Of a stretch of DNA of 64,000 nt, positions 3,881 to 58,117 are shown in pieces. The stretch lies in the sequence record PQ341120.1. One strand, written 5' to 3'. Each line of letters opens with the position of its first letter. The stretch's first letter is position 1. Source of the stretch: Escherichia phage EAWsc9. The position numbers and the translations under genes are program-made. Below the pieces are notes generated by a model. It saw only the letters and a list, made by a program, of their open reading frames with translations, was not told the DNA's origin and made no database searches.

Positions 3881-3931
3881 CCGTAGAACCATTATACAGT
3901 GTTATAAATAAAAGCATAATCGGTTCTACGG
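3881..3931 (+). terminator. Stem-loop (10-bp inverted repeat CCGTAGAACC / GGTTCTACGG) after gene 18
   Basis: Perfect 10-bp inverted repeat with a 31-nt loop containing TATAAATA; no T-run, so possibly an attenuator or processing site. Confidence 0.4.
3903..3910 (+). promoter_or_regulatory. Late promoter motif TATAAATA between genes 18 and 19
   Basis: Exact motif inside the loop of a 10-bp inverted repeat. Confidence 0.45.
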
Positions 3932-9922: not shown

Positions 9923-9945
9923 TCCTAGATTAAGTTAAATAAAAA

Positions 9946-9973
9946 GGGACCCTTGAGGTCCCTTTCTTGTTTT
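9946..9973. terminator. Bidirectional rho-independent terminator after gene 23
   Basis: GGGACC-CTTGA-GGTCCC followed by TTTCTTGTTTT; A/T runs on both sides. Confidence 0.75.
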
Positions 9974-11646: not shown

Positions 11647-12930
11647 ATGCAAAAGATTAATGCACTAATTCACGAATCAACATTAACGGCGGCCAACCAG
11701 GTCGCCCGTCCTAATTTGCTTTCTTATACCCAGGCTACGAATAAACGAATTTTTAAAGCACTCGTGGCCGAACAGAAAACTACCCAGCCTGTTGCAGCCC
11801 TGTATGGTGTTCGTGTTCTGAACCCAGATGATAAAATGACTTATCTCGGTGGAGCAACATTTGCAGGTCAGATTGGTATGTTCGAGCGTAAGAATATTCC
11901 AGAATTTACAAACAAAGACGAAGCTTATGCAGTCGGCGATATGTTCCAGTTTGAAAGTGTTGTGTTCAAAGTTTTGGAAGCATCCCCATTCGCCGGTACA
12001 CTCGAAACTGATTTAGGTGAAGTTATTTCTGAAGCCATTGCTGCTGGGCATATAAGAATGATGTCAGATGCTGCTTTCACTGATAAATTTGAAAAGGGGC
12101 ATCCTGAAATTGCTGAAGCTGGTTTTCGTATCGATAAATGGCAGACTGAAGTTAAATCCAGAAAGCTGAAAACTTCTTTAACTGTCGAGCTTGCACAAGA
12201 CCTGGAAGCAAACGGTTTCGATGCAACAGACTTCATCGATAATATTCTCGGTATTCAAATGGCAGAGGAAATTAATAAGGATGTATTACAATCCCTTATT
12301 ACTGTTAGTTCCCGCTTCAAGGTACAAGGTGTTTCGGAAAAAGGTGTATTGAATCTTACTGACCCGAAATATGATAATGCCCAGGACCGCGCACGAACCC
12401 TGTATTATTATATGTGTGAAATGAATTCTGCAGTTCAACGTCAGACTTCGTTTGCTGGTACATATGCAGTTGCTTCTTCCCGTTGTGCAGCTATTTTAGC
12501 CGCTTCTGGCTGGGTTGAGAAAAAGGAAGACCAGGATGAATTGGCCTATGGTGTTCTGAAGAACGGTTTGCCTCTTTACGCTGATATGAATAGTCCATGC
12601 GATTATGTTATTGTTGGTGTAAATGCAGATATGGGTGAAGGTCAGACGGTCGCATCTTTATATTATGCGCCTTATACGGAAGGACTTAGCGAAGTTGATG
12701 ATGAGGGGGATACCTCGGTTGGGGAATTCAAGGTTATTGTTGACCCTGAAAGTTTACAGCCTACGGTTGCACTGTTAGCTCGTTATGCTTTGACTGCGAA
12801 CCCGTACACCGTTGCTAAAGACGATAAAGAAGCCCGCATTATTGATGGTGCTGATATGGATAAGATGGCTAACCAAAGCCAATTGAGTTCTTATCTTGGT
12901 GTTAAACTTCCACCACTGGAAAAAGAATAA
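11647..12930 (+). CDS. Capsid vertex protein paralog (second gp24-like gene), 427 aa
   Basis: Shares conserved blocks with gene 24 (EINKDVLQSLITVS, ANPYTVAKDDKEARIID, SRKLKT.LTVELAQD); start immediately follows the gene 24 stop. Confidence 0.85.
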   Translation: MQKINALIHESTLTAANQVARPNLLSYTQATNKRIFKALVAEQKTTQPVAALYGVRVLNPDDKMTYLGGATFAGQIGMFERKNIPEFTNKDEAYAVGDMFQFESVVFKVLEASPFAGTLETDLGEVISEAIAAGHIRMMSDAAFTDKFEKGHPEIAEAGFRIDKWQTEVKSRKLKTSLTVELAQDLEANGFDATDFIDNILGIQMAEEINKDVLQSLITVSSRFKVQGVSEKGVLNLTDPKYDNAQDRARTLYYYMCEMNSAVQRQTSFAGTYAVASSRCAAILAASGWVEKKEDQDELAYGVLKNGLPLYADMNSPCDYVIVGVNADMGEGQTVASLYYAPYTEGLSEVDDEGDTSVGEFKVIVDPESLQPTVALLARYALTANPYTVAKDDKEARIIDGADMDKMANQSQLSSYLGVKLPPLEKE

Positions 12931-12956
12931 GGGCCGCAAGGCCCTTTTTTTATTCA
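12931..12956. terminator. Bidirectional terminator between the gp24 paralog and rnlB
   Basis: GGGCCGCAAGGCCC followed by TTTTTTTATT. Confidence 0.75.
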
Positions 12957-13957
12957 TTAATTAATGCAATCCAAACATGTCTTAATGTTTCTCTTACATT
13001 TGTAATAAGTTGCTTTTTAACTTCAACAGGATTTTCTGTCTGGGTCAATTCAAGGCCTTCACGACCAGCTTCTTCCAGAATATCTTGGACTGTTAGCCCC
13101 ATTACCTTCCCAAAATCCTTCGGCGATACTTCCCCAATTTTACTGATAACATTATTGATACGGTTAACGGTCACGTAATCAGTGAACTTCCATAAAATAT
13201 CCAGGTCTTCCTGGGACAACACAACAGCAGCCTTAATAGGCTTATCAGACTTTTTCTTTTCGCTGAATTTAGAATTCTTGCATTTAATCGCCACACGCTC
13301 GCCGTTAGGTAACCAGGCGGGAACATCAGGTTTTAATACAAATCCTTCAGCAGTGAATACTTTACCTTCCACCTTTGCATCAAAATCAGTGGTATTTGCT
13401 GTAGTCAAGCCTGCGTTATCCACTGTAAAATTGTAATCAGGAACAACAGAATCCAGGTCATTAGGGAGCTTAATCAAGTCTTCAAAGCTTCCGGTAGCCA
13501 GTCGCGGAGCAACCTTAAACTTATGGATAATACAGAATGCTTCCATCAAGGTGTCAGTCAGGACAGATTCAGTTCCATCTTCCTTAGTAACGCGGATATC
13601 AAACACATAGAAATCTTTATCGCCGTAATCCACATTCTTCTGGATACCTGTACCAGCAAACTCACCATAAATCTGGTAAGCCTGGTAATTAATATCCTGT
13701 AAAAGTTTCTGCACAGATTTAATAGAATCTGCGTAGTTCTTTAATACAATTTCATAACCATAGAAATCTTCTGCAGGTAGAATAGGTCCAGTGCGTTTCG
13801 CGCATGTCACATTGTCTTGTTCAATGATTAATGAAAAGTTGGTACCATGAATCTTTTCACGAGCTACCCATTCACCGCTGGTGAAGCCTTGCAGGCGAAT
13901 CTTTTCAATGAACTTGTTATTATAGTGATTTTCAAGGCTGTTGTATTTCTTAAACAT
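12950..13957 (-). CDS. rnlB: RNA ligase 2, 335 aa
   Basis: MFKKY.SLENHYN.KFIEK...[13 protein letters not shown] (lysine nucleotidyltransferase motif KxHG) as in T4 Rnl2. Confidence 0.95.
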
Positions 13958-14040
13958 AATCTCTCACTTTTGATGTTATAAATATCATTATAAATTAGAC
14001 CCGCTATACTTTCTTTCTCTGAAAGGAATTAATAGTCACA

Positions 14041-14085
14041 AAGGGTCTAGAACCATTATACCGCATTTTTATTTGAAGCAAAAAG
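14041..14085 (-). promoter_or_regulatory. MotA-box middle promoter upstream of rnlB with conserved downstream element
   Basis: Minus strand reads TTGCTTCA, 12 nt, GTATAAT, GGTTCTAGACCC; 21-nt block identical to the one at the uvsY promoter. Confidence 0.5.
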
Positions 14086-14087
14086 GG

Positions 14088-14351
14088 TCAGAATTTTACA
14101 TACAGCATTGGCTTGGATTCTTGCCAATCATAATTCCAGGTAAAAGATGTAAATTTTTCTGCTCGCAGAAATTCAGATATCTTTGCGCGGTTTCCTTCTT
14201 CATACTCTTTTTCAGAAACTGCCATATTAACAGCATCTTTGCCATTCTCTGCGGCGGCAATAGCCACTTTGCGAAATATAGAGATAAAGTCATTTGCAAC
14301 TTTATCTTGTGACTCTTTGGCTATTTGGCGTAGTTCTTCTGCGAATGTCAT
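14088..14351 (-). CDS. Hypothetical protein, 87 aa
   Basis: Minus-strand ORF with ATGA overlap to the upstream gene; corresponds to the T4 24.2/24.3 region. Confidence 0.6.
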   Translation of the reverse strand: MTFAEELRQIAKESQDKVANDFISIFRKVAIAAAENGKDAVNMAVSEKEYEEGNRAKISEFLRAEKFTSFTWNYDWQESKPMLYVKF

Positions 14352-14551
14352 TTCTTCACCTTTTTGTTATTCAAACGTTTACGATAAACAATCTTTTCTT
14401 TCGCTTTAAATTTAGCTTTGGCTTGTTCTACATCAACCCAGGCCTTTGCCATCTCTTTAGCAGTCCCGCCTAATACCTTGGCGATTTCAATAAATGTCAT
14501 ACCAGATTCATGCAGAAAATGTACTTTAACCTTATCCATAATGATTCTCAT
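14348..14551 (-). CDS. Hypothetical small basic protein, 67 aa, possible helix-turn-helix
   Basis: ATG start; basic C-terminal half; T4 24.x region. Confidence 0.6.
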   Translation of the reverse strand: MRIIMDKVKVHFLHESGMTFIEIAKVLGGTAKEMAKAWVDVEQAKAKFKAKEKIVYRKRLNNKKVKK

Positions 14552-14685
14552 GTTGAGTTAGTGAAGCTATCTTAACATGGAATTTTTAACTTGTAAACAT
14601 GATTTTTATGCCAGATGAACAATTGCATGGTATGGTCACAAAGACTCACTAGAGAAAAGGGCCCAGGCAACGTTTGCCTAGTACC

Positions 14686-14712
14686 ATAAAAATAAAGGGA
14701 CCCGAAGGTCCC
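14686..14712. terminator. Terminator after hoc
   Basis: GGGACC-CGAA-GGTCCC flanked by A-run and T-run. Confidence 0.7.
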
Positions 14713-14719
14713 TTTTTAA

Positions 14720-15568
14720 TTAATAAACGTAATCGTATATAATACCAGTTTCTAAAGCGGTGCGATGAATAACTCGACCATTACGAGATTCTTGTACATC
14801 AACCTCTGGATAGTCGGTAATCATTTTTTGAAGTGTGTATCGGTGCAAATAATACGGGCTATCTGGGTCATCAGTTTTCCAGTCTTGTCCGGCAAGAGTC
14901 ATTTTCTGAATTTCATCCATAACCCACCAACCACACCAGATATAAGCTGAATTACGTACTGGCAATGGATGAACGTAAGGTAATTCGCCGTCTGGAACAG
15001 GTGCGACTTTAGCCGTAACTGTTACATTACCAGTTTTGGTAACGGTTACAGGGTTATAATCTGTAGCAGATACAACAACAGAAACTTCAATTAACTGGGA
15101 ACCTTCGGCGCTTGTATCGATTGCTAAAGTATCCATGGTGCCAACTACAGGAGAACCGTCTTTCTTCCAAGAATAGGCAAAAGTAGCACCAGCAGGCGCA
15201 CCGGCTACAGTAGCTTTAAAAGAAGCCGGAGTATCTTCCGGAACATTAATTGATTCTGGGGTTAATGTCACAGAAACACCAGACATAGTTTTATTCTGGA
15301 TAGTTAAAGTTGTCTCAGCCTCAGCAGTTTCCGGTTCACCGTCTGCCGGAGTGGTAGTTGCAACAACTTTAATAGTCTTACTGCCTGCTGGGCCAACAGC
15401 GACATAATCCATTGCTGCAGTCACAGAAGATTGAGGAACGCCATCAACGGTCCATACAAATGATTCAACACCTTCAGCTGCAGCACCAGAGCCGGTTGCA
15501 GTGAAATTGGTTGTTGCTCCAATAACGGCCGTAGCCGCCAAAGGAGCAATAGCTACGGTATAAGCCAT
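14720..15568 (-). CDS. hoc: Highly immunogenic outer capsid protein Hoc, 282 aa
   Basis: Ig-like domains and conserved C-terminal capsid-binding region (LPYVHPLP...YIWCGWWVMDEIQKMT) as in T4 Hoc; about one Ig domain shorter than T4 Hoc. Confidence 0.9.
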   Translation of the reverse strand: MAYTVAIAPLAATAVIGATTNFTATGSGAAAEGVESFVWTVDGVPQSSVTAAMDYVAVGPAGSKTIKVVATTTPADGEPETAEAETTLTIQNKTMSGVSVTLTPESINVPEDTPASFKATVAGAPAGATFAYSWKKDGSPVVGTMDTLAIDTSAEGSQLIEVSVVVSATDYNPVTVTKTGNVTVTAKVAPVPDGELPYVHPLPVRNSAYIWCGWWVMDEIQKMTLAGQDWKTDDPDSPYYLHRYTLQKMITDYPEVDVQESRNGRVIHRTALETGIIYDYVY

Positions 15569-15577
15569 AATAAACCC

Positions 15578-16243
15578 TTATTTTAAAGTGACAAAAGATG
15601 AGTTACGAGTTTCTCGTACTAGAACAGACCCATTACGATTGATGTAATAAATCAAACTGAATAGGGTTTGATGCGCGGTGGGATGTGGGAAAGCAGTTGG
15701 ACGTTCTTTCCAATCCGGAGTCTCAGAAATCCACTGATAAATCCACCATGGAACAGTACAGAATCCAGGGTTCTTGCCAATAAGCATAAGATTTGGACTA
15801 AAGTTTTTTGGTAGAGCAAATACAGGTTTTTCAGATTCGATAACCTTAGCAACAGCTGCTTCGAACTTTTCTTCGATAAAAGGAACATCTTCTTCGACCA
15901 AAACAACTGGTTCTTCGATTTCAACAACTTCAACCTTTGCTTCGGTTGGAGCATCAAATAAGAGTTTAGCTTCTTCTTTAGCTGACTCATCGCCATCAAA
16001 TTTAGCACCTGACAATTCATCGTCAGCATCAATAAGGTCGGTGATGCTCAGGCCTTCATTATCATCAGGCATAGGCATGTCAGCAAATGCTTTAAGTCCT
16101 GCTTCCAGGTCAGCCAACATATTATCAAAGGTTTTTGTTTTCTTAACATCAACGCCAAGTGATGCTGCATATTCGGCTAATTTTTCTTTGGCTTCTTTTT
16201 TCTCGAGGACACGAATTTCCTCAATGTAGTTCTTGTCAATCAT
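15578..16243 (-). CDS. inh: Inhibitor of prohead protease Inh, 221 aa
   Basis: Synteny next to hoc and size close to T4 Inh; GAGG RBS. Confidence 0.85.
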   Translation of the reverse strand: MIDKNYIEEIRVLEKKEAKEKLAEYAASLGVDVKKTKTFDNMLADLEAGLKAFADMPMPDDNEGLSITDLIDADDELSGAKFDGDESAKEEAKLLFDAPTEAKVEVVEIEEPVVLVEEDVPFIEEKFEAAVAKVIESEKPVFALPKNFSPNLMLIGKNPGFCTVPWWIYQWISETPDWKERPTAFPHPTAHQTLFSLIYYINRNGSVLVRETRNSSFVTLK

Positions 16244-16261
16244 GATGAACCTCGGTTAGTG

Positions 16262-16269
16262 TATAAATA
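16262..16269 (+). promoter_or_regulatory. Late promoter TATAAATA for uvsW
   Basis: Exact motif about 29 nt upstream of the uvsW ATG. Confidence 0.55.
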
Positions 16270-16297
16270 TAGATATATTTATTACCTTGGAATCATC

Positions 16298-17797
16298 ATG
16301 GATATTAAAATCAACTTTCTAAATTTTAGTCACGTGCATGTTGAATGTGAAGATGGAATCTTCTACGAACTCCGTGATTACTTCAGCTTCGAAGCTGAAA
16401 ACTATCGCTTCAATCCAAAATTCAAGCAGGGAGTTTGGGACGGACGAATCCGCCTCCTGGATTACAATCGTAAATTACCATACGGTTTGGTTAATCAAAT
16501 TAAAAAGTTCGCTGACCAGTTTGGCTATTCATTCTGGATTGACCCACAAATCACCGAGAAAGAAGAAATCTCTCGCGAAGAATTCGACAAATGGGTCGAG
16601 TCAAAAGAAATCTATTCAGGCAATACTAAGATAACGCCCCATTGGTATCAATCTGACGCCGTATATGATGGTCTGGTCAACAGAAGAAAGATTCTGAACT
16701 TACCTACGTCTGCAGGTAAAAGTCTCATCCAGGCGCTTCTGGCGCGATATTATCTCGAGAACTATGAAGGCAAGGTACTTATCCTTGTTCCTACAACCGC
16801 GCTTGTTGACCAGATGATTAATGACTTTGTTGATTATCGTCTGTTCCCTCGTGAAGCTTGTCTGGGTATTCGTTCCGGGACTAAACGTGATTCTGATGCG
16901 ATGATTTATGTATCGACTTATCAGACGGCTGTAAAACAACCTAAAGAATGGTTTGAACAGTTTGGTCAGTTTATGAATGACGAATGTCATATGGCGACAG
17001 GTAAATCAATTTCGACGGTTATCGAAGGCCTTACGAATTGTATGTTTAAATTTGGTTTGTCAGGTTCACTCCGTGACGGCAAAGCCAACCTTATGCAATA
17101 TATGGGTCTGTTTGGTGATATCTTTAAACCAGTATCAACATCTAAATTGATGGAAGATGGTCAGGTCACTGACCTTAAAATAAATAGTATTTTCCTTCGT
17201 TATCCTGATGAATTTACCGTTAAAATGAAAGGTAAAACTTATCAGGATGAAATTAAGGTAATTACAAAAGCTACGCGCCGAAATAAATGGGTAACAAATC
17301 TTGCTCTCAAGCTTGCTAAAAAAGATGAAAACGTCTTTTTGATGTTTAAGAATATCGAGCACGGTAAATTGATGTTTGAAATGCTTAAGGAAGCTGGTCA
17401 TGAGAAAGTGTATTATGTTTCCGGGGAAGTTGATACCGAAACCCGTAATGCTCTGAAGGTCATGGCAGAGAATGGAAAGGGAATTATCGTTGTAGCTTCA
17501 TATGGTGTATTCTCGACGGGTATTTCCGTTAAAAACCTCCATCATATTATTTTCGCTCACCCGGTCAAATCAAAGGTAATTGTACTCCAGACAATTGGCC
17601 GTGTACTTCGAAAACATGAATCTAAATCGACCGCAAACGTTTTTGATATCGTTGATGATATGGGTGTTAAACCTAAATCAGCAAATGCTAAAAAGAAATA
17701 TGTTCATTTGAACTTTGCTCTAAAGCATGGTCTTGAACGCATACAACGATATGCAGACGAACAATTCAATTATGTAATTAAACAGGTGGAAATATAA
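16298..17797 (+). CDS. uvsW: UvsW RNA-DNA/DNA-DNA helicase, about 499 aa
   Basis: MDIK..F..FSHV... plus SF2 helicase motifs (LNLPTSAGKS, DECH); track ORF begins at an upstream GTG, the ATG at 16298 fits the T4 N-terminus. Confidence 0.95.
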   Translation: MDIKINFLNFSHVHVECEDGIFYELRDYFSFEAENYRFNPKFKQGVWDGRIRLLDYNRKLPYGLVNQIKKFADQFGYSFWIDPQITEKEEISREEFDKWVESKEIYSGNTKITPHWYQSDAVYDGLVNRRKILNLPTSAGKSLIQALLARYYLENYEGKVLILVPTTALVDQMINDFVDYRLFPREACLGIRSGTKRDSDAMIYVSTYQTAVKQPKEWFEQFGQFMNDECHMATGKSISTVIEGLTNCMFKFGLSGSLRDGKANLMQYMGLFGDIFKPVSTSKLMEDGQVTDLKINSIFLRYPDEFTVKMKGKTYQDEIKVITKATRRNKWVTNLALKLAKKDENVFLMFKNIEHGKLMFEMLKEAGHEKVYYVSGEVDTETRNALKVMAENGKGIIVVASYGVFSTGISVKNLHHIIFAHPVKSKVIVLQTIGRVLRKHESKSTANVFDIVDDMGVKPKSANAKKKYVHLNFALKHGLERIQRYADEQFNYVIKQVEI

Positions 17798-18024
17798 TGA
17801 AATCCTTTGAAGAAATTATGTACGAAGCATCAATTGAAGGCTTTATGGCTAAGATTGGTTCCTGTCAGACCATGGACGGTCTGAAGGAGTTGGAAGGCTA
17901 TTATAAAAAACGCAGCAAAGAAGCTGAACTAAAAGATTCCGATGATATCAGTGTTCGTGATGCTCTTGCCGGTAAACGCGCCGAGCTTGAGGATATGGAC
18001 GACGACGAAGACGAAGATTTCTAA
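17797..18024 (+). CDS. uvsW.1: UvsW.1 small acidic protein, 75 aa
   Basis: TAATG overlap with uvsW; separate small ORF as in T4; acidic C-terminus. Confidence 0.85.
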   Translation: MKSFEEIMYEASIEGFMAKIGSCQTMDGLKELEGYYKKRSKEAELKDSDDISVRDALAGKRAELEDMDDDEDEDF

Positions 18025-18028
18025 ATAA

Positions 18029-18060
18029 AAAGGCCCCAACCAAAAGGAAGGGGCAAAACC
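18029..18060. terminator. Hairpin terminator between uvsW.1 and the small minus-strand ORFs
   Basis: GCCCC ... GGGGC stem with flanking A/T runs. Confidence 0.5.
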
Positions 18061-18081
18061 AAAAATGGTTAACAACACTAG

Positions 18082-18249
18082 CTAAATTAAAAGTTGGGTC
18101 TCGTTCAGTTGCTCTTCTGTATTTTCCGTAACTGGCAAACTCTGAACATAATTATAACAGGCGCCCGGATGTACCGGACCTTGGTCTGTATCCACAACCA
18201 ATGCAGAATCGATTGGAGTTTTACAGACAACACAAATCTTATCTGACAT
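18082..18249 (-). CDS. Hypothetical small Cys-rich protein, about 55 aa, putative zinc ribbon
   Basis: Hand-translated (not in track): MSDKICVVCKTPIDS...HPGACYNYV...; strong GAGGAG RBS; terminator downstream. Confidence 0.4.
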   Translation of the reverse strand: MSDKICVVCKTPIDSALVVDTDQGPVHPGACYNYVQSLPVTENTEEQLNETQLLI

Positions 18250-18277
18250 GATTGTCTCCTCAGTTAAACTTACATAT

Positions 18278-18388
18278 CTATTTAGTGCTCTTCATAATAG
18301 CAGCACGAGCTTTCATCTCATTAACAATTTCAGTTATTCGGTTTGCAGAGATAACCATCTCGTCGAGAATCTTACTAATATTTTTCAT
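18278..18388 (-). CDS. Hypothetical small protein, about 36 aa
   Basis: Hand-translated (MKNISKILDEMVISANRITEIVNEMKARAAIMKSTK); ATG directly after the uvsY.-1 stop. Confidence 0.35.
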   Translation of the reverse strand: MKNISKILDEMVISANRITEIVNEMKARAAIMKSTK

Positions 18389-18622
18389 TTAATTTTCCTT
18401 AAAGTATCTCATACCAGTATCTATCCCCATATTGTGAGAATAGAACGCATCATCGATGTATCCTGCAAATTTACCTTTAACATAGATAACATCTTCACCA
18501 CAAGGGTGGTCAGCGCAGATACGAATATCTGCACGATTCAATTTCCATTCCTTCATCATATACTTAATTTCTTCTTCGAACTCTTCGTCTTGGTTAAACG
18601 CATCGTCGATAGAATATCGCAT
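18389..18622 (-). CDS. Hypothetical protein, 77 aa, uvsY.-1-like
   Basis: Position immediately downstream of uvsY; size matches T4 uvsY.-1. Confidence 0.7.
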   Translation of the reverse strand: MRYSIDDAFNQDEEFEEEIKYMMKEWKLNRADIRICADHPCGEDVIYVKGKFAGYIDDAFYSHNMGIDTGMRYFKEN

Positions 18623-19056
18623 TATTTGCCTGCCTCGAATTGTCTTATTTCTAACATATGTTTAAGTGCGAAACTTCGCGACTTAACACCATCTAATGCA
18701 GCGCTACAGAAGTCCTGGAGTAGTGCCCAATACTGAATTGAAGTATCAATCTTCAGTATGTTTGAATCTGCTGCCATGACTGTTTTCAATTCTGACTTCT
18801 CGTATACATCCATGCATACCTCTTCCCCTGGGTCACCTCTTCCAGTATAATGGTCTAGTCGTTTTTTCAGTGCAGTTTTCTTCTGAATCTCAAGACGCAT
18901 TATTTCTTTCTTGCAGTTGGTATACAATCTCAACCATTTGCTATGCAACAAAACGTTGTTTTGTGTTTCATATTGAAGTTGCGTACCATCAATTTTTAAA
19001 TCTGCATCTAACTCATCCTGAAAGACTTCTAACTTATATTCAATCTCTGTTTTCAT
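18622..19056 (-). CDS. uvsY: UvsY recombination mediator, about 144 aa
   Basis: Matches T4 UvsY (TQLQYE..NNV.L.SKWL, KSRSFALKHM...FEAGK); first ATG of the track ORF lies inside the promoter -10, so the second ATG is used. Confidence 0.92.
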   Translation of the reverse strand: MKTEIEYKLEVFQDELDADLKIDGTQLQYETQNNVLLHSKWLRLYTNCKKEIMRLEIQKKTALKKRLDHYTGRGDPGEEVCMDVYEKSELKTVMAADSNILKIDTSIQYWALLQDFCSAALDGVKSRSFALKHMLEIRQFEAGK

Positions 19057-19070
19057 AATGTATCCAATGT

Positions 19071-19115
19071 AAGGGTCTAGAACCATTATACAGCCATAAA
19101 ATTAAAGCATTAACC
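19071..19115 (-). promoter_or_regulatory. MotA-box middle promoter of uvsY (position of T4 replication origin oriF) with conserved downstream element
   Basis: Minus strand reads AATGCTTTA, 12 nt, GTATAAT, GGTTCTAGACCC. Confidence 0.55.
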
Positions 19116-37301: not shown

Positions 37302-37580
37302 TTAAATTGCTTCTGCAATTGCAGTTTGATTCTGGAAGTCAACCTTGCACGAAACGGTCAAAGTGGCTCCATCAATTTTAAACGGAACAATTGCGAATGC
37401 TGCACCAGGCGTGAGTTGAACAGTGATTGCATCAACTGCATCCGGGAACATGATTTCCAGAATAGCAGACAAACGACCGTGCACTTTTAGTTCAGTCGAC
37501 ACGTCGACGCTTTCGTATAGATAATCAGATACAATCTGACTAAAAAGTACTTTAACAATTTCAGAATATGTAGGAAACAT
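37302..37580 (-). CDS. Hypothetical protein, 92 aa
   Basis: ATG start; preceded by a MotA-box-like middle promoter carrying the TATAATGGGGTCTAGG element. Confidence 0.6.
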   Translation of the reverse strand: MFPTYSEIVKVLFSQIVSDYLYESVDVSTELKVHGRLSAILEIMFPDAVDAITVQLTPGAAFAIVPFKIDGATLTVSCKVDFQNQTAIAEAI

Positions 37581-37611: not shown

Positions 37612-37650
37612 AAGGACCTAGACCCCATTATACCATAAAATTTTTAAAGC
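37612..37650 (-). promoter_or_regulatory. Middle-promoter-like element upstream of the 37302..37580 gene
   Basis: CGCTTTA, 12 nt, TATAAT, GGGGTCTAGGTCC (degenerate copy of the conserved element). Confidence 0.4.
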
Positions 37651-54160: not shown

Positions 54161-57100
54161 ATGGCCGATATTTTAAAACCAGCATTCAGAGCAACATCCG
54201 GTCTCGATGCTGCTGGTGAGAAAGTCATTAATGTCGCAAAAGCTGATTACTCAGTTTTATCAGACGGCGTTAACGTAGGTTTCTTTATAGAAGAAAACAC
54301 AGTTCAACAATATGATGCAACACGCGGATACAAAAAGAACTTTGCAGTTATTAATGATAACCGTATTTGGGTTGCTCAACGTGATATTCCGGCACCAGCT
54401 GGAGCATTTACCCCTCAGTATTGGTTAGCAACTCGTACTGACCCGAAATGGGAAACTGTTGCATCTCCAACTCGTCAGCTTAGCTCCGGTGAATTTATCG
54501 CAGTCGACTCAGCTGCAAGCTTTACCACATTTACATTGCCTCCGAACCCGACTGATGGTGATACCATCGTTATTAAAGATATCGGCGGTAATACCGGTTA
54601 TAATGAAATTAAAATCCAGTCAAGCAACGTGCCTGGCCAAGGTAACCAAAAGATTGTTCGCTTTGGTAATCAGTATTCAGAAGTTTTAATTACCAAACCA
54701 TTCTCTTATAACATGCTTATCTTTTCAAACCGCTTATGGCAATTTTGGGAAGCAGGTAACGAAGAACGTGGTATCAGAGTAGAACCGTCGACCGGACGTT
54801 TCCATGCACAAGCTGGCGACTTTATTATGCGTCGTTATACAACTGGTGCACCGATTACTTTCATTCTTCCTAAGTATGCAAACCAGGGTGATATTGTCAA
54901 ATCTGTTGATATCGATGGCATGGGGCCAACGTTCCACCTGATGGTTGAAACCTTTGACACCAGTTCCAGTCTTGGGAAAGCTGGCCAGCATCAAATGGAA
55001 TTCCGTACCACAGGTGATGGTTTCTTCGTTTATAATGCTGCCGAAAAACTCTGGTATGTTTGGGACGGTGATTTTAAAACTCGTCTTCGCGTTATTCGCG
55101 ACAGCGTTAAACTTTTACCAAACGAAAGTGTCATTGTATTTGGCGAAGATAACTCAACTCCGGCAACGATTAATATCGATTTGCCAACTAATGTTTTGCA
55201 AGGCGATATTGTTAAGATTGCGCTGAACTATCTCCGTAAATCGCAGACTGTTAATATAAGAGCTGCTGTTGGCGATAAGATTGCAACTGACATTAAATTG
55301 CTGCAATTCCCTAAACGTTCCGAGTATCCACCAGATACAACTTGGGTGATGGTTGATTCATTGACCTTTAATGGCAACATCAGTTATACTCCGGTTATTG
55401 AATTATCATATGCAGAAGATGCAGTGTCTGGAACAAGTTATTGGGTTGTCGCTCAGAACGTCCCGACTGTCGAACGAGTTGACTCATTAAATGATTCCAC
55501 GCGTACACGTCTTGGTGTTATTGCTCTGGCAAACCAGACTCAGGCAAACGTTGACCATGAAAATAACCCAGAAAAAGAACTCGCAATTACCCCTCAGACT
55601 TTAGCCAACCGTGTTGCTAAAGAGAACCAACGAGGCATTGCCAGAATCGCAACGACTGCCCAAGTAAATCAGAACAGTGATTTTGCATTTGTTGATGATG
55701 TAATTATTTCTCCGAAAAAACTCAATGAACGTACGGCAACAGAAACGAGACGTGGGCTCGCAGAACTCGCCACACAGCAAGAAACCAATGCGGGTGTAGA
55801 TGATACCACAATTATAACTCCAAAGAAACTGCAAGCTCGCCAGGGCTCAGAATCGCTATCTGGTATTGTAACTTACGTTTCAACGACTGGTGCAACTCCT
55901 GCCGCTTCGCGTGAATTAAATGGTACAAACGTTTATAATAAAAATACGGTTAATCTGGTTGTTTCTCCGAAAGCTCTTGACCAGTACAAAGCTACTTACA
56001 CTCAGCAAGGCGCGGTTATTCTTGCGGTTGAAAGTGAAGTAATCGCTGGTACTTCTCAATCTGGCTGGGCAAACGCAGTCGTTACTCCAGAAATGTTGCA
56101 TCGCAAAACTGCTCTTGATTCCCGTATCGGTTTAATCGAGATTGCTACTCAGGTTGAAACAGATGCAGGAACCGATTATACCAGAGCTGTGACTCCTAAA
56201 ACGTTAAATGACCGTAAAGCATCAGAAACGTTAACCGGCATAGCCGAGATTGCTACGCAATCAGAATTTGATACTGGAACTGATGATACTCGTATCTCAA
56301 CTCCATTAAAAATTAAAAATAGATTTAATAATACTGCTCGTACTTCTGTTAATGCATTAAGTGGTTTAGTAGAAACAGGGACGCTCTGGGACCATTATAG
56401 CCTGAATATTCTTGAAGCAAATGAGACTCAGCGTGGCACAGCAAGATTAGCAACTCAGGGTGAAGTCAATACTGGCACTGACGATAAAACAATCGTTACT
56501 CCGCTTAAATTGATGTCGAAAAAAGCCACTGAAAACGCCGAAGGTATTGTTCGCATCGCGACAAACGCAGAAGCAACAGCAGGCACATCAAAAGTCTTGG
56601 CCATTAGTCCGTCTGCGCTGAAATATATTGCCCAAACGGAAACAACTTGGGAAGCATCTGAAACACTGCGTGGATTTGTTCGTTTATCTTCCGGTGCAGC
56701 TACTTCGGCCGCAACTACAACGACGGGCGCGGGATTTACATATGAAAATGGTGTGTATACCCCGGACCCAAGTAAACTGGTTAGCTATGCGAAATCTGGA
56801 TATGCAGTTTCGCCTTACGAATTAAACCGCGTATTGCAAAACTTCTTACCGATAAATGCGATGGCTGTTAATGCTGAAAAACTGGATAACCTCGATTCGA
56901 CCCAGTTTATTCGTCGTGATATTGCTCAGACTGTTGAAGGTGTATTAACCCTTACTAAGCAGACAAATATATCTGCTCCGGTTGTATCGACGAGCACTGC
57001 GGTGTTTACTGATGTAACGGCTGGTACTTCGACGTTCGGAACTGTGAATGTTGTTAATGGAACTAACAAGTGGAAAATCACTGCTCCTTCCACCGGAACG

Positions 57101-58117
57101 ACAATGACTATTGGTGATACGACTAACGTATTGACATTAAACACCGCCTCGGGTAATGCTGCAGTATTGAACAACCTTAGCGCCGGAAATGATGTTCAAG
57201 CCAAAAATAATTACGTTCTAAATGGTCGTACTATCGCAACCACGACGGGTGAAGTTTCTGGTGCAACTTTGTCTCTGGGTGATAACTCACAGAATTTAGT
57301 GCTCAAAACTCTTGATGCTGGTAATATCATAGCAAATGGTGGCGGTGCATTTAAAGTTCTGACCGAGAAAAACGCAGTAGAAATTGTTGATAGAAACTTT
57401 GTTAACCAGGCTGGTGATACAATGTCTGGTGTACTCCGTGTGAATGCTCCAGTCCGTGTATTCGGTACGAAACCAAGTCTTATCGCACAAGCTCCGACTG
57501 CGGATACTGTTGGTTTCTGGTCTGTCGATATCAATGATGAACCGACTTATAGCCAGTTCCCTGGTTATTGGACAATGAAGTTAAAACGTCAAGTAAACAT
57601 TGATACGGTTCAAACTAAACCTGCTGGGGTAACTGATGAAGTTTGGAATGCTTCTGGTTGGTTAACTGAAAACGGAACTTTTGCCTCGCCCGCTATTCGT
57701 TATCGTACTGATGATGGTACACTCGGTGATGAAGTATTAGGTAGCTCCGGACAGAAACTGCGCGGAACCTGGTTTGACTATTCAGTTCGTGATAAACAAA
57801 TTAAATATCCTGGTACATTGACTCAGTTTGGTAATACGCTAGATTCGTGCTATCAAGATTGGGTTTGTTATCCAACTGGATTGAACGGTGGTACTATTCG
57901 TTATACTCGTACATGGCAGAAAAATAAATCAGCATGGACGACTTTCGCAATGGTTTACACCGCGGATAACCCTCCGTCTGCAGAGGATGTTGGTGCATTA
58001 CCGGCTGACAACACAACGATGGGGAACTTAACCATTCTTGATTGGTTACGTATCGGTAACGTGCGTATCATCCCAGACCCGACCACTAAATCCGTTAAGT
58101 TTGAATGGATTGAATAA
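54161..58117 (+). CDS. 34: Long tail fibre proximal subunit, 1318 aa
   Basis: Size and position (after rnh, before 35); internal repeated segments typical of gp34; TATAAATA about 30 nt upstream. Confidence 0.95.
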   Translation: MADILKPAFRATSGLDAAGEKVINVAKADYSVLSDGVNVGFFIEENTVQQYDATRGYKKNFAVINDNRIWVAQRDIPAPAGAFTPQYWLATRTDPKWETVASPTRQLSSGEFIAVDSAASFTTFTLPPNPTDGDTIVIKDIGGNTGYNEIKIQSSNVPGQGNQKIVRFGNQYSEVLITKPFSYNMLIFSNRLWQFWEAGNEERGIRVEPSTGRFHAQAGDFIMRRYTTGAPITFILPKYANQGDIVKSVDIDGMGPTFHLMVETFDTSSSLGKAGQHQMEFRTTGDGFFVYNAAEKLWYVWDGDFKTRLRVIRDSVKLLPNESVIVFGEDNSTPATINIDLPTNVLQGDIVKIALNYLRKSQTVNIRAAVGDKIATDIKLLQFPKRSEYPPDTTWVMVDSLTFNGNISYTPVIELSYAEDAVSGTSYWVVAQNVPTVERVDSLNDSTRTRLGVIALANQTQANVDHENNPEKELAITPQTLANRVAKENQRGIARIATTAQVNQNSDFAFVDDVIISPKKLNERTATETRRGLAELATQQETNAGVDDTTIITPKKLQARQGSESLSGIVTYVSTTGATPAASRELNGTNVYNKNTVNLVVSPKALDQYKATYTQQGAVILAVESEVIAGTSQSGWANAVVTPEMLHRKTALDSRIGLIEIATQVETDAGTDYTRAVTPKTLNDRKASETLTGIAEIATQSEFDTGTDDTRISTPLKIKNRFNNTARTSVNALSGLVETGTLWDHYSLNILEANETQRGTARLATQGEVNTGTDDKTIVTPLKLMSKKATENAEGIVRIATNAEATAGTSKVLAISPSALKYIAQTETTWEASETLRGFVRLSSGAATSAATTTTGAGFTYENGVYTPDPSKLVSYAKSGYAVSPYELNRVLQNFLPINAMAVNAEKLDNLDSTQFIRRDIAQTVEGVLTLTKQTNISAPVVSTSTAVFTDVTAGTSTFGTVNVVNGTNKWKITAPSTGTTMTIGDTTNVLTLNTASGNAAVLNNLSAGNDVQAKNNYVLNGRTIATTTGEVSGATLSLGDNSQNLVLKTLDAGNIIANGGGAFKVLTEKNAVEIVDRNFVNQAGDTMSGVLRVNAPVRVFGTKPSLIAQAPTADTVGFWSVDINDEPTYSQFPGYWTMKLKRQVNIDTVQTKPAGVTDEVWNASGWLTENGTFASPAIRYRTDDGTLGDEVLGSSGQKLRGTWFDYSVRDKQIKYPGTLTQFGNTLDSCYQDWVCYPTGLNGGTIRYTRTWQKNKSAWTTFAMVYTADNPPSAEDVGALPADNTTMGNLTILDWLRIGNVRIIPDPTTKSVKFEWIE

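Follow-up and report, generated by a model that had tools for sequence, protein, structure and literature searches.

Identical 21-nt repeats upstream of uvsY and rnlB

The 64,000-nucleotide (nt) stretch of Escherichia phage EAWsc9 analyzed here (PQ341120.1, referred to as the window) carries uvsY (18622..19056, 144 amino acids) and rnlB, encoding RNA ligase 2 (12950..13957), on its minus strand, and a copy of the same 21-nt repeat lies upstream of each gene. The two gene names are confirmed by the annotation of phage SP18. The window is from a Gaprivervirus, a T4-type phage like SP18 and VR20, and the region is 95–97.5% identical to Gaprivervirus phages including pEC-M719-6WT.2, SP18, and VR20. 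The repeat, AAGGGTCTAGAACCATTATAC on the plus strand, is matched exactly at 14041-14061 and 19071-19091, as the initial annotation had reported. It has no other match in the window at three or fewer mismatches, and 100 dinucleotide-preserving shuffles gave 0 matches. Both copies correspond to positions -13 to +8 of a promoter on the minus strand that reads G, TATAAT, GGTTCT, and A(+1)GACCCTT. The uvsY copy (19071..19091, minus strand) and the rnlB copy (14041..14061, minus strand) are defined by both the exact match and the sequence around it.

The uvsY promoter (19078..19108, minus strand) is the orthologue of T4 PuvsY. It has a MotA box, GCTTTA, at 19108-19103 (aTGCTTTA with its flank), a 12-nt spacer, TATAAT at 19090-19085, and then GGTTCTAGACCCTT, with a predicted +1 A at 19078 and a further 21 nt to the ATG at 19056. 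The rnlB middle promoter (14048..14079, minus strand) has the MotA box GCTTCA at 14079-14074 (tTGCTTCA), a 13-nt spacer, a -10 box (TATAAT) at 14060-14055, and the same GGTTCTAGACCCTT. Its predicted +1 is the A at 14048, and about 80 nt separate the block from the ATG at 13957. The uvsY promoter site lies 29 nt and the rnlB site about 90 nt before the respective ATG. In both promoters the MotA box fits (a/t)(a/t)TGCTT(t/c)a and is centered near -30, and the spacers of 12 and 13 nt together with TATAAT agree with the 11-13 nt spacing and the TAnnnT -10 of T4-type middle promoters. The anatomy of MotA box, spacer, and TATAAT that had been proposed therefore stands for both sites, except that the 12-nt spacer given for both is 13 nt at rnlB. 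The predicted transcript of either promoter begins AGACCCUU. A sigma-70 -35/-10 scan of the window made no call at the sites of this promoter type. SP18, a close relative with ~96% identity over the region, has annotated motA and asiA genes; both genes lie outside the 64-kb window.

Two observations concern uvsY itself. The longest uvsY open reading frame (ORF; 154 amino acids, SP18 annotation 113707-114171) starts at an ATG at 19086 inside TATAATGG, which places this codon within the -10 box of the uvsY promoter, ahead of the predicted start site. A start at the 19056 ATG, giving 144 amino acids, agrees with the alignment to T4 UvsY. Within the gene, a sequence resembling the promoter core in inverted orientation (18843-18860, plus strand; CAGTATAATGGTCTAGTC) was considered and rejected as a further copy, with only 10 nt exact, about the chance level. 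This segment encodes the conserved RLDHYTG stretch of uvsY.

Further copies in the window

A 16-nt core of the repeat, TAGAACCATTATACAG, recurs exactly at 3884-3899, antisense, in the gap between genes 18 and 19, where the initial annotation had placed it. It belongs to an antisense middle promoter (3884..3915, minus strand) with GCTTTT as the MotA box, a 13-nt spacer, TATAAT, and ggttctacgg, and its predicted +1 is 3884. The degenerate copy noted earlier upstream of the ORF at 37302-37580 is also real. This promoter (37614..37650, minus strand) reads GCTTTA, 12 nt, TATAAT, and ggggtctaggtccttt with one inserted G, and the ORF is cd.3-like according to the SP18 cd.3 annotation. A looser copy that had not been listed before lies antisense inside gene 34 (54161-58117, plus strand). 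It spans 56387..56418 on the minus strand and reads GCTTCA, 13 nt, TATAAT, and ggtcccagagcg. The sequence TATAATGGNYCYA has 4 matches in the window against 0.05 expected. The suggestion that the similarity is not chance is borne out at the level of shuffles and expectation, and a chance origin is ruled out by the mismatch and shuffle search, by the TATAATGGNYCYA excess, and by the GG enrichment described below. The 21-nt repeat is real and probably functional.

The gene 18/19 gap also holds a late-promoter consensus, TATAAATA (3903-3910, plus strand), upstream of gene 19. It sits in the spacer of the opposite-strand middle promoter, and the two promoters therefore overlap back to back.

A subclass of middle promoters

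The copies define a subclass with the pattern TATAAT-GG(T/G)YCYA-R(G/A)NYCYTT. Its distinguishing module consists of GG at -6/-5, a T/Y-Y-Y tract, an A start 7 nt past TATAAT, a G/C-rich pentamer at about +2 to +6, and then T's. The window was scanned for a MotA box plus TATAAT, which gave 12 strict matches and 15 when W was allowed at box position 6. Most of these candidates are A/T-rich after the -10. Five members carry GG followed by YCYA, namely the four sites of the initial annotation and the gene 34 site. GG follows TATAAT in 5/15 MotA-box promoters compared to 4% in the background (p = 2e-4), and the same enrichment is seen among the MotA-box promoters of SP18 (p = 2e-5).

The complete SP18 genome contains eight subclass members, each with a MotA box. 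They are located antisense in the srd/modA intergenic region, before nrdC.6, antisense in the gene 3/gene 2 intergenic region, antisense at gene 18/19 (at 99612, the orthologue of the window site), at rnlB, at uvsY, at cd.3, and inside gene 34. The exact words TCTAAGTCC in T4 and TCTAGACCC in SP18 occur at subclass promoters only and on one strand, a restriction that eliminates the motif as a free-standing site or a complementary-RNA target.

Sequence-string and keyword searches of the literature, with the full T4 promoter tables outside their reach, found no description of the module. The middle-promoter consensus quoted in reviews ends at the -10 or at the TGn element.

T4 members and mapped start sites

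T4 has five members of the subclass. Two are antisense and on the plus strand, at srd/modA (11890; gaatctaagtccttcc after TATAAT) and at gene 3/gene 2 (75993; gggtctaagtcccttcc). The other three are on the minus strand: PuvsY, which is oriF (115378; gaatctaagtccatcc), PnrdC.7 (53332; ggttctaagccctttt), and P34i, which is oriG (153018; ggtcccagagag). In Hinton's table of middle promoters mapped in T4, the start sites are 115371 for PuvsY, 53325 for PnrdC.7, and 153011 for P34i (PMC2988021). Each of these starts is an A exactly 7 nt past TATAAT. Therefore, the first six bases of the "downstream" block are an untranscribed discriminator, and the earlier description of the block as initially transcribed sequence has to be corrected because half of the 21 nt precedes the start site. 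MotA-dependent 5' ends at the window promoters are predicted, indirectly, from the mapped starts of these three T4 promoters.

The uvsY promoter in the window occupies the position of T4 oriF. It had been assigned there on first inspection, and the comparison supports this: it is both a positional and a sequence orthologue of PuvsY, the oriF promoter.

The two T4 antisense promoters are of the near-consensus MotA type and read aaaTGCTTTA or taaTGCTTTA, a 12- or 13-nt spacer, and TGGTATAAT. They point into modA and into the late genes 2 and 4. Their SP18 equivalents are at +11419 and +73495. Neither promoter is in Hinton's middle-promoter table (PMC2988021), and the T4 GenBank and RefSeq records have no promoter features at 11.89 or 75.99 kb. 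At the srd/modA promoter, T4 11885-11915 reads TATAATG, 14 nt, and CATTATA, so that the opposite strand carries a second TATAATGG, 16 bp away and facing the first.

Conservation across relatives

The initial annotation had named absence of the motif from close relatives as grounds for abandoning it. In SP18, VR20, VR25, and VR26 the equivalent promoters do carry the motif, and the pattern extends to about ten more distant lineages. The uvsY promoter is conserved in 27 T4-like contigs from about ten lineages, with gggtctatgggtt, gggtttacgggtt, ggtcctatggtta, ggttttgagttcc, and ggatttaggttc as examples of the sequence after TATAAT. The gene 3/gene 2 antisense promoter is found in at least six lineages and the srd/modA antisense promoter in four. 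The rnlB promoter is present in SP18, VR20, and VR25 and varies from +6 onward (ACCCTTT, ACCCCTTT, and ACCTTCC). Its Dhakavirus orthologue reads TATAATgggtctaggtcc, and a promoter like the cd.3 member was found in a Dhakavirus contig. The gene 34 promoter stretch is a local identity maximum between T4 and the window (0.90). Among the matches listed from a degenerate pattern scan of IMG/VR, most were background, and subclass members were in T4-, JS98-, and other T4-like contigs. The existence of the subclass is shown by these data, as are its conservation between genera and its inclusion of mapped T4 promoters.

Positions 1-2 (GG), 4-7 (T-Y-Y-A), 9, and 11-12 after the -10 have high relative entropy, which reaches background past about 13. 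The conserved span runs from about -6 to +6 and then decays. It matches the DNA within the transcription bubble and immediately in front of it.

Copies at different loci of one genome can be identical even where orthologues differ. The T4 uvsY copy equals the T4 srd/modA copy, the window uvsY copy equals its rnlB copy, and the Dhakavirus rnlB copy equals a second Dhakavirus promoter, apparently that of cd.3. T4 carries the word TCTAAGTCC three times, whereas the window phage has TCTAGACCC and Dhakavirus has TCTAGGTCC. This likeness points to homogenization or to a shared genome-specific constraint.

The near-palindrome around TCTAGA is not part of what is conserved. It is confined to Gaprivervirus; at its position other genera have GGGTCTATGGGTT, GGGTTTACGGGTT, or GGTCCTATGGTTA, and T4 has GAATCTAAGTCC. 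The halves in most lineages resemble a short direct repeat, GGKTY, 2-3 nt, GGKTY, rather than a dyad. The proposal of a conserved downstream palindrome, and with it a dimer site, is ruled out by this cross-genus comparison of the uvsY and gene 3/gene 2 sites. The cross-genus forms and the rnlB variation from +6 show that TCTAGA is a lineage-specific spelling.

A probable core-promoter module of MotA-dependent promoters

The safest statement is that these sites are MotA-dependent middle promoters that make up a conserved subclass in which discriminator, start, and early-transcribed bases form a fixed module. Our favored reading, with a probability of roughly 0.6, is that the 21-nt copies are parts of the MotA/AsiA-dependent promoters PuvsY and PrnlB, which belong to a subclass carrying a core-promoter module and have undergone some within-genome homogenization. 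The module most likely acts in the stability of the RNA polymerase open complex and in start-site choice. In discriminator elements, sigma region 1.2 makes its optimal contact with a GG that follows the -10, and pyrimidine-A is the usual start preference of RNA polymerase. In the proposed mechanism, these sites would be bound by host RNA polymerase whose sigma-70 has been remodeled by AsiA and is linked through MotA to the GCTT box. The GG would contact sigma region 1.2, and the pyrimidine-A step would set the start site. Acting together, these features would stabilize the open complex and make the start precise at promoters lacking a -35 contact. The additional identity shared by non-orthologous copies would arise from short-patch homogenization or from selection on the same optimum, not from a separate palindrome-binding protein.

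Several observations weigh against this reading. Among the other good middle promoters, which have a perfect MotA box and TATAAT, most are A/T-rich after the -10, and therefore the module is not required for MotA activation. The conservation at +2 to +6 is beyond the known sequence-specific contacts of RNA polymerase. GG enrichment in T4 taken alone is weak (p = 0.075) because two of the T4 members have GA. Non-orthologous copies in the same genome are more alike than orthologues between genera, a likeness that could instead come from a co-evolving phage factor.

Relation to replication origins

The module might instead determine R-loop replication origins or primer promoters. The subclass would then mark promoters whose transcripts remain annealed to the DNA and prime its synthesis, the antisense members being origins or primer sources rather than promoters for proteins. 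This is unlikely. Both proven T4 R-loop origin promoters, PuvsY (oriF) and P34i (oriG), are in the five-member T4 subclass under a relaxed definition, and the chance of finding both there, given about 62 middle promoters, is about 0.005 as a post hoc estimate. For the remaining three T4 members, the distance to the approximate locations of oriA, oriC, and oriE is 3-6 kb, and the gene 34 (oriG) promoter in the window carries a loose copy of the motif. A middle-mode promoter stands at a syntenic origin position at the uvsY and gene 34 sites; the comparison does not apply to rnlB, cd.3, or gene 18/19. Four members per genome (gene 3/2, srd/modA, 18/19, and 34) are also antisense and are kept across genera despite the lack of an obvious protein product.

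Other evidence speaks against this reading. The rnlB, cd.3, and nrdC.7 promoters are ordinary gene promoters and not origins. The annotated T4 oriA promoter, P56/69, falls outside the subclass (TATAATtatttaa), oriE is reported with an early promoter, and P34i itself matches the module only loosely. Kreuzer and Brister reviewed the T4 origins as having no common local motif, with R-loop formation independent of specific sequence and oriF showing little homology to oriG (PMC3016281). For a downstream unwinding element or a purine-rich transcript, no distinguishing signature was seen: the A+T and purine content of +8 to +70 does not differ from that at other middle promoters (A+T of 0.62-0.75 for subclass members vs 0.67 ± 0.07).

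A related idea treats the subclass as a functionally distinct set of "primer or antisense" promoters whose transcripts stay on the template or are handled by a phage factor over the start site. It can be entertained because both proven R-loop origin promoters carry the module and because four antisense members per genome, directed into late or early genes with no product, are conserved, but we regard it as doubtful. If true, it would mean new origins, or a conserved anti-late/anti-modA RNA system, at 11.9 and 76.0 kb in T4, with the same prediction for the equivalent sites in all MotA-encoding relatives.

Operator, RNA leader, and recombination

An operator over the start site, bound by a phage repressor that turns these promoters off or by a co-factor with which it co-evolves between genera, is rather improbable. 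It would account for copies that are more alike within a genome than between genera, for conservation a few bases past the known polymerase contacts, and for the direct-repeat-like GGKTY-N2-3-GGKTY arrangement in many lineages. However, the motif never occurs away from a -10 box, it lacks conserved dyad symmetry, and the half-to-half spacing differs by 1-2 nt among lineages. SP18 has both the TCTAGACCC and the TCTAGGTCC types in one genome, and the analysis brought up no candidate for a protein that would bind it.

A role of the transcribed half as a 5' RNA leader element is quite improbable, be it a protective 5' stem-loop, a CCUUCC tract of anti-Shine-Dalgarno type, or a recognition site for a protein or RNase. 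The 5' AGACCC of the rnlB leader can pair with GGGUCU about 45 nt downstream (window ~13990-14048, minus strand; the SP18 copy has a predicted -13 kcal/mol). In T4, CUUCCAUUC of the gene 3/2 antisense leader pairs with GAAUGGAAG, and CCUUCC or CCUUU is present in several leaders. Against this, the strongest conservation (GG, TYY) is upstream of the mapped start and so outside the RNA. The stem-loop was rejected, as the rnlB pairing partner is lost in VR25 and 5' pairing is not generally raised: in T4 the first 8 nt have a predicted pairing of 0.28 vs 0.25 for other promoters, and overall the pairing is inconsistent. No known RNA family was found in the window with Rfam.

A by-product of recombination, through mobile promoter cassettes of the PeSL/PmSL kind or recent gene conversion that left downstream bases with no function of their own, is very improbable. 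In its favor, a genome can hold identical copies that are not orthologous, short homology suffices for recombination in T4-type phages, and promoter-based shuffling cassettes, Mot-box types included, are described in T4-like phages (PMC4122927). Against it, the pattern is held at the same five genome positions across genera, identity ends exactly at a functional boundary (-13), there is no stem-loop partner, and in the one pair compared the rnlB regions of the window and VR25 are collinear, with 91% identity across the motif and no indel junction at it.

Terminator-like hairpins in the window

The window contains two strong terminator-like hairpins, a bidirectional one at 9941-9967 and another at 14694-14715, whose arms are nearly alike (AAAGGGACC-loop-GGTCCCTTT). 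Together they look like a repeated terminator motif.

Significance

The middle promoters of T4 and its origins oriF and oriG are textbook cases, for which the literature describes origins without a common motif and promoters defined as far as the -10. The conserved -6 to +6 module sets apart 5-8 promoters per genome, both R-loop origin promoters included, and two strongly consensus-like T4 antisense promoters are newly brought out. These findings bear on why only some middle promoters serve as origins and on the purpose of the old "anti-late RNA". If the module is only an optimum of RNA polymerase contact, the result is a modest refinement of Tevenvirinae promoter annotation.

Comparison with known systems

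The window promoters have the same build as T4 PuvsY, P34i, and PnrdC.7: a GCTT(T/C)A MotA box near -30, a 12-13 nt spacer, TATAAT, and no -35. The uvsY and gene 34 members are at the same genome positions as their T4 counterparts, whereas T4 has no subclass member at the positions of rnlB, cd.3, and gene 18/19. Compared to the published T4 middle-promoter consensus, the additional -6 to +6 module marks about 5-8 promoters per genome. The GG directly after TATAAT resembles the discriminator recognized by sigma region 1.2 (GGG after the -10), and the pyrimidine-A start 7 nt downstream resembles the Y-1/R+1 start preference of E. coli RNA polymerase. The discriminator element is generic, and it leaves the G/C-rich pentamer at +2 to +6 and the homogeneity within genomes unexplained.

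The PeSL and PmSL cassettes (Arbiol 2010; Comeau 2014, PMC4122927) are likewise promoter-centered repeats dispersed in T4-like genomes, and PmSL, the Mot-box version, is described in vibriophage nt-1 (PMC4122927). PeSLs couple a promoter to a stem-loop at indel junctions in hyperplastic regions, whereas the window motif has no stem-loop, lies mostly in the core genome, and is syntenic across genera. The hairpin that characterizes PeSL and PmSL was looked for: no terminator-like hairpin adjoins the subclass sites, and their leaders have no consistent structure.

The T4 R-loop origins need a downstream unwinding element and not a specific sequence (PMC3016281), and most subclass members are not known origins. 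At oriF (ori uvsY) and oriG (ori34), the uvsY and gene 34 sites of the window are positional orthologues of the T4 origins, and the promoter is kept almost base for base.

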